Assembly (NCBI GenBank): GCA_964453565.1
Contig: CAYVPB010000008.1
Coordinates: forward strand, 614 to 64,613
Source of the DNA: an uncultured Halomonas sp.
GTDB lineage: Bacteria; Pseudomonadota; Gammaproteobacteria; Xanthomonadales; Wenzhouxiangellaceae
Reading direction: 5' to 3'
Length of the DNA: 64,000 nucleotides
The stretch's first letter is position 1. Each line of letters starts with the position of its first letter. Positions 42,350-64,000 of this stretch are shown in pieces. The notes under the pieces were generated by a model. The model had not been told where the DNA came from, made no database searches, and saw only the letters and a program-made list of their open reading frames with translations. Position numbers and translations under genes: made by a program.

Positions 42350-43036
42350 ATGAACTGGAACCGACCTCTTCCCCGGGCTTGTGCCGCAAGCCTGCTTTCG
42401 TTGGTGGCCATGCCGGTTTTCGCGCAGCAACTGGAGGCTCATGAGCATGGCCAGGCAACCGGGCAGCTTGCGGTGGATATTGGCGAGGTCTCGCTCAGAT
42501 TGCGGATGCCGGGGTTTAATCTGGTCGGCTTCGAGCATCCTCCGCGCAATGAGGGGCAGCAGCTTCGCTTCGACCGCGCGCTCAAGCGTCTCGAGGAGGG
42601 CGCCTGGCTGCGCAGCCCGGCCACCGCCCAGTGTGTCACGACTCGGCTTGAGATTCATACGCCTGGATTTGGAGTGGCTTCGCCGGACCAGCATGACCAC
42701 GATCATGAGCATGACCACGACCACAATCAGGAACATGAGCACGATCATGAACATCAGCACGATCAGGAAAATGAGCACCATAATCAAGACCGGCATAACG
42801 ATTACCACGATGATGGGCATGAACACGAACATAACCATCATGATGATGGGCGCCATGCCGAATTTGAAATCGAGGTGGAACTCGAATGCGCGCAACCGGC
42901 CCGGCTTGCATGGATCGAGTTGGACCTGTTCGAAGGCTGGTACGACAACTCGCGACTGCGCCTGGATGTGTTGACCGCGACCATGGTCCGGCAATTTGAT
43001 CTGCGTGCTGGTACCGGGCGGGTCGACTTGCAATGA
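42350..43036 (+). CDS. zrgA: ZrgA-like (DUF2796) periplasmic His-rich metal-binding protein
   Basis: Signal peptide, then a ~60-aa His/Asp/Glu tract (DQHDHDHEHDHDHNQEHEHDHEHQHD...), and flanking beta-rich regions typical of DUF2796. An ABC pair and DUF3299 follow, as in Vibrio zrgABCD. Confidence 0.8.
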   Translation: MNWNRPLPRACAASLLSLVAMPVFAQQLEAHEHGQATGQLAVDIGEVSLRLRMPGFNLVGFEHPPRNEGQQLRFDRALKRLEEGAWLRSPATAQCVTTRLEIHTPGFGVASPDQHDHDHEHDHDHNQEHEHDHEHQHDQENEHHNQDRHNDYHDDGHEHEHNHHDDGRHAEFEIEVELECAQPARLAWIELDLFEGWYDNSRLRLDVLTATMVRQFDLRAGTGRVDLQ

Positions 43037-56648: not shown

Positions 56649-59600
56649 GTGCCTCTAACTCGATTAGGATTGAGTAACCCGGTCGCCGTGGCGGTCGGCT
56701 GCATTCTGCTGGTGATCTTCGGGCTGCTCAGCCTGTTGCGCCTGCCGGTGCAGATGACGCCGAACATCGACCGGCCGACGATATCGATTTCCACTGGATG
56801 GCGTGCAGCCGCGCCGGCCGAGATCGAATCAGAAATCGTCGAGCCGCAGGAAGAGCAGCTCCGGGACGTGCCCGGGCTCAAGCGCATGAATTCCACGGCC
56901 AGCCAGGGGCGGGGCTCCATCACGCTGGAGTTCGATGTCGGCGCCGATCTCAATCGCGCGCTGATCGCCGTGATCACGCGACTCAACCAGGTCTCGAGTT
57001 ATCCCGTTGACGTCACCGAACCCAGCGTTCGCGTGGGCACCGACCAGTTCGGCGATACCATGGCCTGGTTTGGCATCATTCCCAAGGCCGGCAACAGCCG
57101 GCCGATCATCGAGTACCAGGATTTCGTTCAGGACGTGGTTCAGGAGCGCATCGAGCGAATCGCCGGTGTGGCCTCGGCCACCCCGCGCGGCGGTCGGCCG
57201 TTCGAGGTGCGTATCGAGTTCGATCCGTTTCAAGCCGCTTCGATCGGCATCGACCTGGCCCGGATCGGCCGCCAGCTCGGCCAGAACGCCGACGTATCGG
57301 CGGGGTTCGAAGAAGTCGGCAAACGCCGGTACACCTTGCGATTCGCCGGGCAGTACGAAATTCCCGATCTCGAGAGCCTGGTGCTGGAATGGCGTGACGG
57401 TCGGCCGGTGTTTCTGGGCGATGTCGCAACCATCGAGCGGGTCATGCGCGACTCGTCCGGCGGCATGACCCAGAACACCCAGCCGGCGATCATGATGAAC
57501 GTCGTGGCCGAGCCGGGCGTGAACATCCTGAACGTCATGAACGAGGTCAAGGCGGCGGTCGCCGAACTGCAGCAAACGCGCCTGGACCCGGCCGGCCTGC
57601 AGATGAACCAGTCCTCCGACGACACCATCTACATCAAGCAATCGGTGCGCATGGTCGTGACCAATCTCATGATCGGCATGTTGCTGGCCGTTGGCGTTCT
57701 CTGGTGGTTCTTCCGCCGCTACCGCGCGACCATGATGGTGGCCCTGGCCATCCCGCTGTGCTTGTGCTTCTCGTTCATGGTGCTCGATGGGCTCGGCATG
57801 TCGCTGAACGTCATCTCGATGGCGGGCCTGGCGTTTGCCACCGGCATGGTGCTGGACGCCGCCATCGTGGTGCTCGAGAACATCGTCCGCCAGCGCGAGC
57901 AGGGCCGCGACGGTTTTGAGGCCGCCGACCGGGGCGCCAGTCAGGTCTGGGGCGCGCTGGTGGCGTCGACGGCCACCACGGTCGCGATCTTCCTGCCGGT
58001 GTTTTTCCTTCAGGACGAGGCCGGCCAGTTATTCGGCGACCTGGCCGTGGTGATCTCGGCGGCCATCATCTGCTCGCTGTTCGTTGCCATCATCGTGCTT
58101 CCGGCGGCGAGTTGGCGCTTGCTGGGTGACCGTGCCATGGACGATCGACACGTGCACTGGTGGCGCAACGCTGCCGGTTACTTGATGAAGCTGACCGATA
58201 CGCGCAAGCGTCGAATCGGCTGGATCACCGGCCTGATCGGCGTGCCGCTGGCGATCGGAATATTCCTGCTGCCGCCGGCCGACTATCTGCCCGAAGGCCA
58301 GCGTAATCTTGTTTCGGCGTTCGTGCTGGCGCCGCCCGGCATGGGCCCGGATACCGTGCAGGCGGAGCTGGTCGACGTAATTAACGAGCGAATCAAGCCT
58401 TACCTGGACGGCGAAAAGGAACCGAAGCTCAAAAATACGTTCCTGGGTACGTTCGGTTCAGGTGCATTCATAGGTGTGAGAACCGCGGACGAGGAGAGGT
58501 CCGGGGAGATGATTCAGGTGCTCAACAGCGAGATCCTGGCCGGCTTCCCTGACACCTTCGGCCGGGCGACGCGGCGCGCGATTTTCGGCGGGCGCGGCGG
58601 ACGGCGGATCGACGTCGACCTGCAGGCCGGTGATTTCGAAGGCCTGCTGGAAGCCGGCCGGGTCGGGTACGAAAAGATTTCCGAATTGATGCCCAACGCG
58701 AACGTGCGGCCCCAGCCCAGCCTCGAACTGGCCGAACCGGAACTGCGCATGAAGCCCGACGACCGGCGCATCGCCGAGCTTGGCTGGACCCGCAGCGATG
58801 TCGCGACCATGATCCGGGCGATGGGCAGCGGCGCCTTCCTGGGCGAATACTTCGACGGCGAAAAGCGCCTCGACGTGATCCTGCGCAGCGAGCGCTGGGA
58901 AAACCCCGAGCAGCTTATGGCGACGCCGCTGGCCTCGCCTACCGGCGAAATTGTCACGCTGGGCGAACTGGTGACGCTGGAGCGCACCGCCGGGCCCAAC
59001 GAAATCAGGCGCGTCGACCGCAGCCGCACCCTGACGCTGCAGGTCACGCCGCCATCGGGCATGCCGATGGAAACGGCCATCGATCTGCTGCGCACGGAGG
59101 CCGAGCCGGCCATGCGCGCGGTTCTGCCCCCTGACGGCATCGTCACCTACAGAGGCACGGCCGAGGCGCTGGGCGAAACGCTCAGGAGTCTGGCCGGCAG
59201 CTTCGTGCTGGCGATCTTGATCCTGTACCTGCTGATCTCCGCGCTGTTCCGCTCGTTCAAGGATTCGCTGCTGGTGGTGCTGACTTTGCCCATGGCCACC
59301 GTCGGCGGCGTGCTCGGCCTGCGCGTGGTCGACCTGATCTACGGCCAGGCCATGGACATGCTGACGATGATCGGCTTCGTGATCCTGCTCGGGCTGGTGG
59401 TCAACAACGCCATTCTGCTTGTCTACCGCGCGCGTGACGAGGAGCGGGCGGGCAGAGACCGGCGCGAAGCGGTGCGCCAGGCCGTGGGCTTGCGGCTGCG
59501 TCCGATCCTGATGAGCACGTTCACCAGCCTGTTCGGCATGCTGCCGCTGCTGCTGCTTCCGGGCGCGGGCACCGAGTTGTATCGCGGGCTGGCCGCGGTG

Positions 59601-59729
59601 ATCGTCGGTGGCATGGCAATCAGTACTTTATTCACATTGATTCTGCTGCCCAGTCTGCTCAGAATGAACGAAGAAAAGAGTCCGGCCCGCGCCACGCGCG
59701 ATCTGCCGGCGGAGGGACAATTCGCATGA
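56649..59729 (+). CDS. efflux RND transporter permease subunit (AcrB/HAE-like)
   Basis: About 1030 aa with 12-TM RND topology. The ORF opens at TTG 56601, but GTG 56649 (M-PLTRLGLSNPVAVAV) gives the usual RND N-terminus. ATGA-coupled to the downstream adaptor gene. Confidence 0.9.
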   Translation: MPLTRLGLSNPVAVAVGCILLVIFGLLSLLRLPVQMTPNIDRPTISISTGWRAAAPAEIESEIVEPQEEQLRDVPGLKRMNSTASQGRGSITLEFDVGADLNRALIAVITRLNQVSSYPVDVTEPSVRVGTDQFGDTMAWFGIIPKAGNSRPIIEYQDFVQDVVQERIERIAGVASATPRGGRPFEVRIEFDPFQAASIGIDLARIGRQLGQNADVSAGFEEVGKRRYTLRFAGQYEIPDLESLVLEWRDGRPVFLGDVATIERVMRDSSGGMTQNTQPAIMMNVVAEPGVNILNVMNEVKAAVAELQQTRLDPAGLQMNQSSDDTIYIKQSVRMVVTNLMIGMLLAVGVLWWFFRRYRATMMVALAIPLCLCFSFMVLDGLGMSLNVISMAGLAFATGMVLDAAIVVLENIVRQREQGRDGFEAADRGASQVWGALVASTATTVAIFLPVFFLQDEAGQLFGDLAVVISAAIICSLFVAIIVLPAASWRLLGDRAMDDRHVHWWRNAAGYLMKLTDTRKRRIGWITGLIGVPLAIGIFLLPPADYLPEGQRNLVSAFVLAPPGMGPDTVQAELVDVINERIKPYLDGEKEPKLKNTFLGTFGSGAFIGVRTADEERSGEMIQVLNSEILAGFPDTFGRATRRAIFGGRGGRRIDVDLQAGDFEGLLEAGRVGYEKISELMPNANVRPQPSLELAEPELRMKPDDRRIAELGWTRSDVATMIRAMGSGAFLGEYFDGEKRLDVILRSERWENPEQLMATPLASPTGEIVTLGELVTLERTAGPNEIRRVDRSRTLTLQVTPPSGMPMETAIDLLRTEAEPAMRAVLPPDGIVTYRGTAEALGETLRSLAGSFVLAILILYLLISALFRSFKDSLLVVLTLPMATVGGVLGLRVVDLIYGQAMDMLTMIGFVILLGLVVNNAILLVYRARDEERAGRDRREAVRQAVGLRLRPILMSTFTSLFGMLPLLLLPGAGTELYRGLAAVIVGGMAISTLFTLILLPSLLRMNEEKSPARATRDLPAEGQFA

Positions 59730-60785: not shown

Positions 60786-61017
60786 GCAGGAGCGGAAATC
60801 CGTCCGCGATTTGGTGGCTGATCCTTTCGCGGTCGGATACCGCTCCCACGGAATTCTGAAAGATCCGGAGTGAGCCGTAGGACCGGAGTCTGTCCGCGAT
60901 TTGGTGCCTGATTCCTTCGCGGTCAGATACCGCTCCCACAGAGTTCTGCAAGACCGGGGGTTGCCCGCGCGGGAGGGGGTTTCTGCTGTGGGAGCGGAAT
61001 CTGTCCGCGATAGCCTG
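60786..61017. repeat. cluster of REP-like palindromic elements (2.5 copies)
   Basis: Units of the form GGAGCGG-N6-GTCCGCGAT...TCGCGGTC-N6-CCGCTCCCAC at 60786..60851 and 60877..60943, plus a half unit CTGTGGGAGCGGAATCTGTCCGCGAT at 60985..61010. Confidence 0.75.
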
Positions 61018-61158
61018 GCCGAAGAATTTCGAATCTGACCGAAAATTCCGACCCGTTCCGAGATAAGCAGTGTCGAAGGCATCCGGGGGGATGGAAAGAC
61101 AGCACCTCGCTCGGCGCCGTTCGGCATTTATCCAATCCATGAACGGGAGAAAAAGGCA

Positions 61159-61773
61159 ATGAAAAGCGTGATGGCAAATCAGTATCCTGCGGCGGAAGTC
61201 GGAAGTCGGAAGTCGGAAGTCGGAAGTCGGAAGTCGGAAGTCGGAAGTAATCGACTCAAATTGCTAACCACGGGGTTCGTTCCCGGACCAATCCGCAGTC
61301 TTGCTACACTGATTCTTGTGGCCGGGTTGCTGGCTGTCTGCACTCAGCTCTACGCAACAACTGCGATCGTGTGCGTCGGCGAGGGCGAGGACCGCCAGTG
61401 CTGGGAGCAGACCATACAGCCTAAACACGGCTTCTCGCCAGGATCTCCAGGTCACCCCGGGAGTGGGGGAGGAGTTGGTGGGGATGACGGATTTGGTGGT
61501 GACGGAGGAGGTGCGCTCGAGATTCCACCTCTTGCTGCCGAGAATCCCGATAACAATAACGCCGACGCTGACTGTTCCTCGCTGGTGGAAGTCAGGATGG
61601 CGTATGCTGCCGGGGAGGTATCTTTCAATAGGGTCGTTACCGGAGGACAACCAGCGCCCGGCCAACTCTATCTGTTATCGTACCGAAACGGTCAAAGCGA
61701 GGTGTTTCAAGCGGGTCCGATTGCTTCAAGTATCGCTGGAGGACAACCAGCGCCCGGGTCTCCTTGCGGCTAG
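61159..61773 (+). CDS. hypothetical secreted/membrane protein carrying a 5' heptanucleotide repeat tract
   Basis: ATG with GGGAGA 8 nt upstream. The repeat is read as (EVGSRKS)n, then comes a hydrophobic segment LATLILVAGLLAVCTQLYA, a Gly-rich region and two GGQPAPG motifs. No recognised domain. GC is lower than the flanks. Confidence 0.45.
   Translation: MKSVMANQYPAAEVGSRKSEVGSRKSEVGSNRLKLLTTGFVPGPIRSLATLILVAGLLAVCTQLYATTAIVCVGEGEDRQCWEQTIQPKHGFSPGSPGHPGSGGGVGGDDGFGGDGGGALEIPPLAAENPDNNNADADCSSLVEVRMAYAAGEVSFNRVVTGGQPAPGQLYLLSYRNGQSEVFQAGPIASSIAGGQPAPGSPCG
61194..61249. repeat. tandem heptanucleotide repeat (GGAAGTC)x7 plus one imperfect unit
   Basis: Counted directly: perfect units at 61194, 61201, 61208, 61215, 61222, 61229 and 61236, then GGAAGTA at 61243..61249. 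Confidence 0.97.
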
Positions 61774-61784
61774 TGGATGTGATC

Positions 61785-62750
61785 ATGTCAGAGATCAAAG
61801 ATATAAAACCTCGGCTTGTCCTGGCGGTAGCTGCGATTCTGATTTTGTTTCTTGGCCTGATATTCCTTGCTCGATATGCGGGAAGTGGAAGCGGGGAGGG
61901 TCAATCATCAGCCATTGGAAACGCGCCCCAGGAGCGATCTGGCACCAAGCCAGTTGGCGAGCGGCCGGGGGCCATTGCCATATCACCCGAAACATTTGCC
62001 CGGGGGATTTCTCCCGGGCAACTTCAGAAAGCATTGTCCGAGGCTGAAACAGTTCACCGGGCAGAAATGAGATTCCATGACGCCCGGACCGCCAATGAGG
62101 CGTCTCAGGCGATTGAGCTGGCCGAATCCGAAAATTTGCCGGTTGCCAAGGATTGGCTGGCGGCCCTTGAAGGCTTTTGCTTTGACACATCGGAAGTAAA
62201 AGAGTATACATCTGGCCGGCAATGGCTGGATGATCGTCAAAGTAAATTTTGTGCCGGCTATCTCACTAAACGCTTGTTTGGCGACGCCCTTCCATTAAAT
62301 GATCTTTATGCTGATACATTTGCAAGGCAAATCCAGGGGGAAGTCACAGAAAGTCTGCGTGAAGTTAGCGCTTCCGATCAATCCGATTATATAACCATGC
62401 GGCTGAAGAACGCTCGATGGCCAGAGGAAGTGCAAGCAATTCAGCAGGCACTGGCGCAGTATAGAGAGCAATCAAGTACGGGCGTGAGCCCGTGGAACCC
62501 GCTGGAGCGGGCTCCTGAAGACTGGAGGAAACGGTATTCTCCTACATATGCGCAGAGTCAAGACCTGGCCTTGCATATGTATCGCTGCTACAAATTCAGG
62601 TCATGCGCCCCTGACAGTATCGACTTTATGAATACCTGTAGCGTGCTGCCGGAGTGTGAGGACTGGTGGACTATTGACGATTACTTCTACTACACTTCTA
62701 CTCCTCTGGAGATTCAGACAGCATACGAGATTCTGCAGAAGCTTCAATAG
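61785..62750 (+). CDS. hypothetical N-terminally anchored protein with Cys-rich C-terminus
   Basis: ATG at 61785 (MSEIKDIKPR), TM helix LVLAVAAILILFLGLIFLA, and about 280 aa of non-repetitive sequence ending CYKFRSCAPDSIDFMNTCSVLPECEDWW. GC is about 45%. No recognised domain. Confidence 0.55.
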   Translation: MSEIKDIKPRLVLAVAAILILFLGLIFLARYAGSGSGEGQSSAIGNAPQERSGTKPVGERPGAIAISPETFARGISPGQLQKALSEAETVHRAEMRFHDARTANEASQAIELAESENLPVAKDWLAALEGFCFDTSEVKEYTSGRQWLDDRQSKFCAGYLTKRLFGDALPLNDLYADTFARQIQGEVTESLREVSASDQSDYITMRLKNARWPEEVQAIQQALAQYREQSSTGVSPWNPLERAPEDWRKRYSPTYAQSQDLALHMYRCYKFRSCAPDSIDFMNTCSVLPECEDWWTIDDYFYYTSTPLEIQTAYEILQKLQ

Positions 62751-62802
62751 TCACGGTGGAATCGCCGAAATTGAGTTATTCCTGGCGGCATGAGCTGCCT
62801 TA

Positions 62803-63908
62803 TACTAATGCCTTCATAAATCGCGCCTCATAGTTTATAATATGAGGCATGGAAAAGCCACCTGCATTGGATACGAGAAAGCTTCCTCGCAAAGCCATGG
62901 AACAGCTGAGAATGGCGGCTGTCAGGCGAGTTGAGGATGGCGAAAGCCCGGAGGATGTTGCTGCTGCCCTGGGCATTAACCGACGCACAATCTATCGTTG
63001 GCTTTCGGCTTATCACTACGGTGGTGTCGATGCGTTGCGGCGAAAGAAAGCAACAGGTCGCCCGGGAAAGCTTTCGGGAAAGCAAATGGAGAAGTTGGTC
63101 AGAATTCTTCGCACCAAGAACCCGCTGCAATTGAAGTTCGAATACGCGCTGTGGACCATTGCGATGATTCGTCGACTGATTCGGGACCAGTTTGGTGTTG
63201 CTCTGAGTGACGTATCGGTGGGTCGTCTGCTGAAGCGGCTCGGCTTTTCGCCGCAACGTCCGATGTATCGCGCCTGGCAACAGGATGCCGAGCTGGTGGA
63301 GGCGTGGCGAGACAGGGAGTTTCCGGCGTTGGTGCGACGCGCCAGGCGCGAGAAGGCCTTGATTTTCTTTGCCGACGAGTCGGGAATTCGATCGGATTAC
63401 CATGCCGGCACGACCCGGGCGCCCAAAGGGCAGACTCCATTGGTCAAATCTACGGGCGCGCGATACTCGATGAACCTGATATCGGCTATCAATAATCAAG
63501 GACATTTTCGGTTCATGACCGTTGAAGGCTCGGTGACGGCACGCGTTTTCCGTGATTTCCTCAAACGACTGATCGCCGGTGCCGAGCGCAAGATCATATT
63601 GGTTGTTGATGGCCATCCTGCTCATCGTGCAAAGCTAGTGACAAACTTCGTCAAGGACAACAAGGGCGCGATCGAGCTGGTGTTCTTGCCGCCATATTCA
63701 CCTGAGCTCAATCCAGACGAGTTGGTGTGGGCGCATCTCAAGACACGTGTAGCCAGGAAGGCTGCCAAGACGAAGGATGAAATGATGACAGCGGTCAAGA
63801 GCGTCATGCGCAGTCTCCAGAAGTCACCCGTTACAGTTGCTGGATTCTTCAGAACCCCAACATGTGCCTATGCGAGTTTATGAGGCACGATTTATGACGG
63901 TATTAGTA
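62803..63908 (+). mobile_element. IS630-family insertion sequence (complete, ~1.1 kb)
   Basis: Terminal inverted repeats TACTAATGCCTTCATAAATCGCGCCTCATA (62803..62832) and, reverse-complemented, TACTAATACCGTCATAAATCGTGCCTCATA (63879..63908). They match at 27/30. The ends are TA-bounded, consistent with TA target duplication. There is a single transposase ORF. Confidence 0.9.
62849..63883 (+). CDS. IS630-family (Tc1/mariner-like) DDE transposase
   Basis: N-terminal HTH (INRRTIYRWL), then DDE residues in IFFADESGI, LVVDGHPAHRA and LPPYSPELNPDELVW. The stop lies inside the right inverted repeat. Confidence 0.92.
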   Translation: MEKPPALDTRKLPRKAMEQLRMAAVRRVEDGESPEDVAAALGINRRTIYRWLSAYHYGGVDALRRKKATGRPGKLSGKQMEKLVRILRTKNPLQLKFEYALWTIAMIRRLIRDQFGVALSDVSVGRLLKRLGFSPQRPMYRAWQQDAELVEAWRDREFPALVRRARREKALIFFADESGIRSDYHAGTTRAPKGQTPLVKSTGARYSMNLISAINNQGHFRFMTVEGSVTARVFRDFLKRLIAGAERKIILVVDGHPAHRAKLVTNFVKDNKGAIELVFLPPYSPELNPDELVWAHLKTRVARKAAKTKDEMMTAVKSVMRSLQKSPVTVAGFFRTPTCAYASL

Positions 63909-64000
63909 TCTGTCATTTGTCGATCAGATTGAAACGCTGATCCGTCAGCATCGGTAGGCGGTATCCGGGTAGTGTTCCGCGATCTTCTGAACTGCGTTTT

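Follow-up and report, generated by a model that had tools for sequence, protein, structure and literature searches.

The window analysed here, a 64,000-nucleotide (nt) stretch of contig CAYVPB010000008.1 from an uncultured Halomonas sp., carries close to its end a perfect heptanucleotide repeat, (CGGAAGT)x8 (61193..61248, + strand), within the first part of an open reading frame (ORF) that starts with ATG and codes for 204 amino acids (aa) (ORF1; 61159..61773, + strand). We consider it probable that this tract is a hypermutable simple sequence repeat (SSR) and the slippage site of a slipped-strand frameshift switch that turns ORF1 ON and OFF. According to the proposed mechanism, slipped-strand mispairing at replication would add or remove 7-nt units, and ribosomes starting from the Shine-Dalgarno sequence and ATG (61145/61159) would reach the 204-aa product at every third tract length only (5, 8, 11 ...), as a unit of 7 nt is not divisible by 3. 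At the other lengths, translation would end at a TAA located 0-19 nt behind the tract. The allele present in the window would be in the ON state.

The repeat was apparent both in the raw sequence and with Tandem Repeats Finder (period 7, 8.0 copies, 100% matches, score 112, consensus CGGAAGT). It comprises 56 nt (nt 35-90 of ORF1), begins 34 nt past the ATG and, in the present frame, codes for (EVGSRKS) about 2.3 times. The same 56 nt can be read in the GGAAGTC register as (GGAAGTC)x7 at 61194..61242, followed by GGAAGTA. In a regex scan of the 64 kb, it was the sole perfect repeat with a unit of 1-9 nt and a total length of at least 20 nt. Furthermore, six occurrences of the 21-mer (GGAAGTC)x3 were counted in the 64 kb with a tolerance of up to 3 mismatches, all of them within the tract, vs 0.00 expected from 100 shuffles. 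A regex scan of the same 64 kb revealed no GACTTCC run, i.e. no inverted partner, near the tract. An assembly artefact was considered and excluded. On each flank, Logan contigs (k=31) of the runs SRR7048221 and SRR7048222 extend into the tract by 28-30 nt of repeat, and they stop inside it because this is the way in which a de Bruijn assembler behaves at a 56-nt run of period 7. Since independent contigs reach into the tract from both sides, the tract is real.

The most probable start of translation is 5' of the tract, at a Shine-Dalgarno sequence and ATG that the window has in common, together with a homologous leader, with its close relatives (alignment A2). In this alignment the ATG is invariant, and the Shine-Dalgarno-like GGGAG (61145..61149, + strand), 9 nt 5' of ATG 61159, is present in seven of the eight sequences, relative L124 having GGAAG instead. 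In the relatives without a tract (L124, L125 and L128) the distance from the ATG to the transmembrane (TM) motif is constant at 114 nt and in frame, and in the window no start preceded by a Shine-Dalgarno sequence was found between the tract and the membrane helix. It is the conservation of the start, this constant N-terminal length and the lack of a Shine-Dalgarno-preceded start after the tract that argue for the upstream site. When the number of units was varied in silico from 3 to 13, the 204-aa frame was kept at 5, 8 and 11 only, and every other number gave a peptide of 18-47 aa. Both shifted frames meet a TAA 0-19 nt behind the tract; the first one (6, 9 or 12 units) at the tract end, 61248..61250, and the second one (4, 7, 10 or 13 units) at 61265..61267, both on the + strand. 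ORF1 has, in consequence, two of the marks by which phase-variable genes are recognized: a perfect repeat, with a unit not divisible by 3, located in frame downstream of the start, and a product that is truncated, in silico, by the gain or loss of one unit.

These results agree with most of what an earlier note on this DNA had read from the sequence. The tract lies where it had been placed, although what had been counted as seven units plus an imperfect one are, in the CGGAAGT register given by Tandem Repeats Finder, eight perfect units. The ORF does begin at ATG 61159, with GGGAG 9 nt upstream, and runs for 204 codons; the hydrophobic signal/anchor segment that had been noticed corresponds to an AlphaFold helix at aa 46-67 whose motif is common to the homologues; and the predicted truncation by unit gain or loss was reproduced in silico, with full length at 5, 8 and 11 units only. 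The scan of perfect repeats also bears out that the 64 kb hold no comparable microsatellite elsewhere. As to whether translation might start downstream of the tract, a point that the note had raised against its own proposal, the upstream start is the most probable one, given its conserved Shine-Dalgarno sequence and ATG.

The alleles of the relatives were compared at the homologous site, 25-34 nt past the conserved ATG. L124-L128 were obtained by exact-protein look-ups, and L129-L132 by scanning metagenomes with a 20-mer that is invariant in the leaders of the relatives. Two of the six metagenome matches of this 20-mer, L133 and L134, presented no further similarity and were discarded as chance matches. 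Some of the relatives derive from marine and other public metagenomes; the run and sample identifiers point to a Pacific Ocean metagenome for MDTG01. In total, eight distinct alleles with 1, 1, about 1, 2.7, 3.9, 4.1, 7.7 and 8.0 units were found, the repeat units of the relatives being CGGAAGY. L124 and L125 have one unit (CGGAAAT and CGGAAGT, respectively) and L128 has one CGGAAGC beside (CCTTCAG)x2.3; in the three of them the body is in frame with the ATG at the 114 nt mentioned above. With the 3.9 units of the CGGAAGC type in L129, L130 and L132, the ATG-to-TM distance is 121 nt (114+7), the body lies in frame +1, the ATG frame stops after 19 codons and the body is open for 186 codons. With the 4.1 units of L126 and L127 the distance is 128 nt (114+14); the body is in frame +2 and open for 197 codons, and the ATG frame runs into a stop after 24 codons. 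In the window, with 8.0 units, the distance is 162 nt and the body is in frame. The frame of L131 (7.7 units) is not directly readable, with a contig that ends ~18 nt past the tract; measured by the landmark CTGAT(C/T)CTTTA it exceeds L128 by 35 nt (5 units) and would accordingly be out of frame, a count that we regard as tentative.

Three allele types (2.7, 3.9 and 4.1 units) are therefore out of frame with respect to the conserved ATG while their downstream frames are still open. In the L126 and L129 types the length differs from that of the tract-less relatives by exact whole heptamers (+14 and +7 nt, respectively), and their coding bodies show no sign of decay. A change of one unit restores the frame in each case, by gain in the L126 type and in the 2.7-unit allele (L135, described below) and by loss in the L129 type. 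No good alternative start was found in the OFF alleles: the only candidates are GTG or TTG codons at the helix with no Shine-Dalgarno sequence, or a TTG located 14 nt from a Shine-Dalgarno sequence. The coexistence of in-frame and out-of-frame alleles at the same site, with bodies that are otherwise open, is a further mark of a phase-variable gene. Pairwise identities between the DNA of the bodies, which are inflated by the gapped global aligner, were not used as evidence.

The 2.7-unit allele (19 nt of tract) comes from one of the window's own sequencing runs. L135, a Logan contig of SRR7048222, is 99.6% identical to the window (7 mismatches in 1761 nt) over the gene of the HlyD family, the spacer with repetitive extragenic palindromic (REP)-like elements, the leader and the first 53 nt of ORF1. 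Past the tract it cannot be aligned to the window, except that a patch of 83 nt in the Gly-rich linker is 87% identical. The L135 body (…ILILAGLLILSTQLQATTTC…) clearly belongs to the family. It is in frame +2 and meets no stop in the ~125 codons up to the contig end; reading from the ATG meets one after 40 codons. The downstream part of the window allele is also present in the same run (L002). Since both were found there, these sequences indicate the co-occurrence, in the same runs, of two alleles that differ in tract length and are of opposite predicted phase (8.0 units, ON; 2.7 units, OFF). In a separate region of the window, the 3' end of the AcrB-family gene (59555-59637), single-nucleotide polymorphisms with respect to the Logan contigs are clustered (6 in 23 nt in L135 and 3 in 29 nt in L003), and therefore closely related strains co-exist in the sample.

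The tract would be part of the cytoplasmic n-region, on the N-terminal side of the signal/anchor helix. Length changes that keep the frame should be harmless, because the residues coded by the repeat belong to a disordered, probably cleaved or cytoplasmic, N-terminal segment. The gene that follows, ORF2, would probably be switched along with ORF1 through translational coupling or polarity. We infer that switching is frequent and reversible within the population and that it may be selectively useful, i.e. that this would be a contingency locus whose product, an envelope or a secreted protein, is subject to diversifying selection. With respect to the slipped-strand phase variation that the earlier note had proposed, the variation in units and the ON and OFF alleles with open bodies speak in its favor, and the number of units, which the note had suggested comparing across relatives, varies from 1 to 8.0; reversible switching in one clone is, within this proposal, a prediction.

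Several observations weigh against a switch. The short tracts are stable within lineages, with 4.1 units in both L126 and L127 and 3.9 units in L129, L130 and L132, a stability that has to be qualified in that the MDTD, MDTG and CEVF assemblies may share reads. The k=31 Logan contigs break inside the x8 tract, so they give no unit count within a clone or sample, and the linkage of the L135 body to its leader rests on a k=31 graph contig, which guarantees only ~11 nt to the left of the tract. No sigma-70 promoter was predicted 5' of ORF1 in the window. Moreover, ORF1 has no match in Pfam, NCBIfam, PADLOC or the PDB. Finally, the OFF state of the relatives could reflect a recent loss of the gene to pseudogenization and not a reversible condition.

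In line with this last point, the tract could be a non-adaptive slippage hotspot, which would undergo the same expansion and contraction with no regulatory role, the N-terminus being dispensable and the OFF relatives representing a first step of decay. We regard this explanation as unlikely. It would suit a gene family (ORF1/ORF2) that is rare, fast-evolving and without assigned function, the identical short tracts in repeated assemblies of one lineage, and the over-representation in prokaryotes of heptamer SSRs without a known role (PMC4692102, PMC4679880). In addition, three of the four frame-readable alleles with more than 2 units are OFF, which is near the 2/3 of a random phase; however, the proven switch neuO presents the same 2/3-OFF pattern (PMC13001214). 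A mere hotspot is harder to reconcile with the three OFF allele types that have no further stops in their bodies (186 and 197 codons, and ~125 to the contig end in L135), with the stop that immediately follows the tract in either shifted frame, and with a repeat that was kept or re-expanded at one site in otherwise very divergent lineages, where at least two types of unit (CGGAAGT and CGGAAGC) are found.

A quite improbable alternative, in our opinion, is that the tract, the leader and the first codons serve mainly as a 5' homology anchor, or crossover site, for the exchange of divergent ORF1-ORF2 cassettes, the frameshift being a side effect. In its favor, the 99.6% identity between the window and L135 ends at the tract, past which only the 83-nt patch (87%) can be aligned, and a comparable picture is given by L126, L129 and L131, whose leaders are 93-95% identical and whose sequences past the tract look very different by eye. 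The contig of L131, which ends ~18 nt past its tract, and the lower GC of ORF1-ORF2 (0.50-0.58 vs ~0.65), with a bordering transposase of the IS630 family in the window or of the Y1 type in L130, also fit. However, the conserved leader alone would suffice for the exchange, and an anchor explains neither the stops behind the tract nor why the tandem array is perfect and changes in length by whole units. Neither a recombinase, nor a silent cassette store, nor a second homology arm was identified, and a role in recombination would be compatible with phase variation rather than exclude it. A combination of both functions is a tentative proposal: free-living marine or saline gammaproteobacteria may have a class of contingency cassettes, hitherto undescribed, to which this locus would belong and in which the conserved, structured leader, the first 9-12 codons and the CGGAAGY tract would be at the same time a frameshift switch and a fixed 5' anchor for the recombinational swapping of a hypervariable two-gene module between co-occurring, near-identical strains.

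A translation start downstream of the tract (e.g. TTG 61261), which would leave the repeat in the 5' untranslated region (UTR), tuning expression or without effect, is very improbable: TTG 61261 would give a conventional short n-region ahead of the helix, and the gene callers picked non-ATG starts in some relatives, but this codon has no Shine-Dalgarno sequence (it is preceded by tcggaagtaatcgactcaaa), the upstream Shine-Dalgarno sequence and ATG are conserved with an ATG-to-TM distance fixed at 114 nt, in frame, in the tract-less relatives, and the L129-type alleles and L135 have no start in the body frame between tract and helix. Nor does the tract behave as a spacing switch of a promoter or UTR, being located 34 nt downstream of the conserved ATG, with the promoter-like pair of the relatives ~100 nt upstream.

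Regarding the protein, a search by exhaustive phmmer against 1.8 billion proteins, with the part of ORF1 after the repeat as query, recovered 13 distant homologues (E-values from 3.6e-8 to 8e-4), so that ORF1 is not the orphan gene for which it had been taken. The homologues (alignment A1) have in common a hydrophobic helix, a Gly-rich linker, and a C-terminal domain with C139, C203 and an NGQSE.F motif. The signal/anchor helix of ORF1 (codons 46-67, LATLILVAGLLAVCTQLYATTA; 61294..61359, + strand), assigned from the homologue alignment and AlphaFold, carries the motif LVAGLLGLSTQL, also common to the homologues. In the AlphaFold model made with A1, residues 1-40 are disordered, 46-67 form the helix and the linker is disordered; the C-terminal domain is confident, with an average predicted local distance difference test (pLDDT) score of 82-92 in the last eight 10-residue blocks (~aa 121-204). 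Judging from these 13 homologues with common motifs and from the confident C-terminal domain of the model, ORF1 is a real gene of a small, fast-evolving and rare family. Its product has a TM/signal helix (aa 46-67), a Cys-containing C-terminal domain and a rapid divergence, which may suit exposure at the surface or another interaction with the environment; no functional match was found. Foldseek found no match of ORF1 in the PDB with E<1. Searched against PDB profiles, alignment A4 gave matches only at E about 0.4, and the matches of A1 were only the Gly-Ser linkers of single-chain variable fragment (scFv) constructs, which were discarded. Similarly, in a word-indexed search with full ORF1, the sampled matches other than ORF1 itself covered only (EVGSRKS)n; they are unrelated, probably eukaryotic, low-complexity proteins, and were rejected as homologues.

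The 5' leader (61072..61158, + strand) is homologous to that of the family (GGCATCCGGGGGGATG ... CGGCATTT ... GGGAGAAAAA) and is predicted by RNAalifold to be structured; ~95 nt are conserved in the window and L124-L131 (alignments A2 and A3). Between L126, L129 and L131 the leaders share 93-95% identity, and on inspection the sequences past the tract look very different. RNAalifold proposes a stem, GUCGUUUGGCAU/AUGCUGGACGGC, in which two pairs present compensatory changes, and an 11-bp hairpin, GUAAUUGACAA/UUGUCAAUUAC, crosses this stem and abuts the Shine-Dalgarno sequence in the relatives other than the window. The stem and the hairpin are predicted to be alternatives or parts of a pseudoknot, and these structures could be a translational control element; no Rfam family matched the leader. 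The relatives have a clear promoter-like pair, TTGACT-17/18-TAnnnT, ~100 nt 5' of the ATG. In the window, the only sigma-70-like site of the scanned region lies at 62813-62841, just 5' of the transposase gene, and the scan for promoters and terminators predicted no terminators.

ORF2 (61785..62750, + strand) begins 11 nt past the stop of ORF1 and codes for 321 aa, with a TM segment at the N-terminus and four invariant Cys in the C-terminal domain. A partner of this type, of ~300-360 aa, follows the ORF1-like gene in all the related loci. ORF2 is probably co-expressed with ORF1; a word-indexed homology search with ORF2 found only itself. Upstream, between the HlyD-family gene and the ORF1 leader, there are three REP-like palindromic elements (60790..61013, unstranded), which are GTGGGAGCGGTATCTGACCGCGAA-like, occur in direct and inverted orientation, and are found only here in the 64 kb. 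Downstream, a transposase of the IS630 family (DDE_3; 62849..63883, + strand) borders the ORF1-ORF2 segment. The GC content drops from ~0.65 to 0.50-0.58 over ORF1, ORF2 and the transposase (window ~60800-64000), and because of this fall the segment is suggested to be a foreign or exchangeable cassette.

The order AcrB-like, HlyD-like, REP-type spacer, ORF1, ORF2 and transposase is conserved between the window and L130, the last gene being IS630 in the former vs Y1_Tnp (IS200-like/RAYT-type) in the latter. The proteins of the HlyD family are 79% identical between the two loci vs 29% for ORF1 and, over the last 64 aa only, 33% for ORF2. The gene pair evolves far faster than its neighbours, which is the pattern expected under diversifying selection, and the ORF1-ORF2 module is a cassette that is hypervariable and probably recombines behind a conserved leader. 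It could plausibly consist of a secreted Cys-containing protein and a membrane partner with a four-Cys domain, as an effector/immunity pair or one that interacts with phages or grazers. A more distant ORF1-like gene, with a lipoprotein-type signal (MKKSIFLVLLLSSFMAVAC), was observed in L136 (GCA_041156805.1, JBFPDY010045899.1, 2493-4007), followed by an ORF2-like gene with four Cys; this contig also carries a phage packaging gene (GP3_package). Therefore, the two-gene module exists outside the lineage that bears the leader and the tract.

It is worth comparing the tract with the known SSR systems, the nearest of which are neuO of E. coli, by its mechanism and unit length, and opa of Neisseria, the classic case of a tract in the region of the leader peptide. 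In Neisseria, the opa genes form a multi-copy, hypervariable and recombining family with (CTCTT)n in the region that codes for the leader peptide. The resemblance resides in an SSR placed in an N-terminal targeting region, where in-frame changes should spare the mature protein and out-of-frame changes switch the gene off, and in the hypervariability and recombination of the gene family. The differences are the pentamer instead of the heptamer found here, an unrelated protein family, and multiple copies vs the single locus seen in this case. neuO, in turn, is the O-acetyltransferase gene of prophage CUS-3. Like ORF1, it carries a heptanucleotide a few codons past the start, and its full-length product, as that of ORF1 in silico, is obtained at every third unit number only. 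In E. coli K1, (AAGACTC)n lies in the 5' coding region of neuO, which is ON when n is divisible by 3; the alleles comprise 3-53 units, and 65.6% of the complete genomes have the gene OFF (PMC13001214). The natural alleles of neuO thus vary widely in units, with most of them out of frame (PMC13001214), and ON and OFF relatives are also found here. The likeness is mechanistic only, since the two genes are not related in sequence or family: ORF1 matches no Pfam or NCBIfam family at all, and hence does not belong to the NeuO/hexapeptide O-acetyltransferases. Moreover, the present host is an environmental gammaproteobacterium and not a pathogen, the repeat precedes a signal/anchor helix and nothing suggests that the residues it codes for matter for the mature protein, and switching was measured for neuO whereas here it is inferred from the comparison of alleles.

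In H. influenzae, TGAAAGA is found upstream of hmw1A and hmw2A, and AACAACC at or in a gene for a TonB-dependent receptor (PMC2651432). These are also 7-nt units, vary in number between strains (1-38) and are tied to surface proteins (PMC2651432). The hmw tracts, however, lie in the promoter region and grade transcription, whereas that of the window is downstream of the start codon and would act by frameshift. What was already known, then, is SSR frameshift phase variation of the neuO/opa type and heptanucleotide switching in H. influenzae and E. coli; the new elements here are the environmental setting and the gene family, along with the comparison of ON and OFF alleles, combined with an allele replacement just behind the tract. 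SSR phase variation has been documented almost entirely in host-adapted pathogens, and here the same architecture is present in uncultured environmental gammaproteobacteria. If confirmed, it would provide a concrete contingency locus in the open environment and would flag a new family of secreted protein and membrane partner under diversifying selection. From the point of view of annotation, such genes are given erroneous starts or have the appearance of pseudogenes in assemblies, and assembly with a short k breaks at the repeat; in this case, an unannotated gene pair differs between strains that co-occur in one sample.

The earlier expectation that such a repeat would be unusual in an environmental bacterium was not sustained. 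Heptamers are over-represented among long SSRs, and intergenic heptamer arrays have been described, with GGGAATC in Xanthomonas, GGGGA(T/C)T in Nostoc and TAACTGA in Beggiatoaceae and Cyanobacteria (PMC4692102, PMC4679880). The window tract resembles these arrays in being a tandem of period 7, in a non-pathogen genome, with a copy number that differs between relatives (PMC4692102, PMC4679880). The arrays are mostly intergenic, often with mixed heptamers and sometimes in inverted pairs, whereas the window tract has a single pure unit, no inverted partner, and a conserved position in a coding region. Being located in an ORF, with one unit type and only one occurrence in 64 kb, it does not qualify as an intergenic multi-heptamer array. 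Our own scan of genome contigs detected (GGAAGTC)n with n of at least 3 in at least 120 species-level genomes of many phyla, several of them with 2-4 loci. Among the matches listed, the tracts reach 21.6 units (L089), other examples having 18.0 (L071), 15.3 (L069), 14.7 (L086) and 14.6 units (L116). Other perfect heptamer runs are also present in 42 of the 120 loci listed, and an inverted GACTTCC partner lies within 600 nt in 8 of the 132 tracts listed. None of these 120 loci is homologous to that of the window, and a literature search for the repeat string gave no match.

Some minor observations were made on repeats other than the ORF1 tract. In four Nostoc loci (L020, L086, L093 and L117) a conserved element of ~80 nt (ACAGTTTTGTAACGGGGAT...AAAACTTAAAGC...GGGGTTTTAAACCCA) lies directly 3' of the (GGAAGTC)n tract, and in two loci of Chitinophagales (L005 and L042) the same position is occupied by a conserved terminator-like hairpin, GAAGCGTCTTTAACGGGACGCTTTTTTT; neither of them matched Rfam. 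In the window itself, Tandem Repeats Finder detected an imperfect coding repeat at 42692-42778, with a period of 18 nt, 4.8 copies, 79% matches and the consensus CATGAACATGAGCACGAT, whose + strand translation would be a stretch rich in His, Asn, Glu and Asp. Because 18 is divisible by 3, this repeat is not a frameshift switch.

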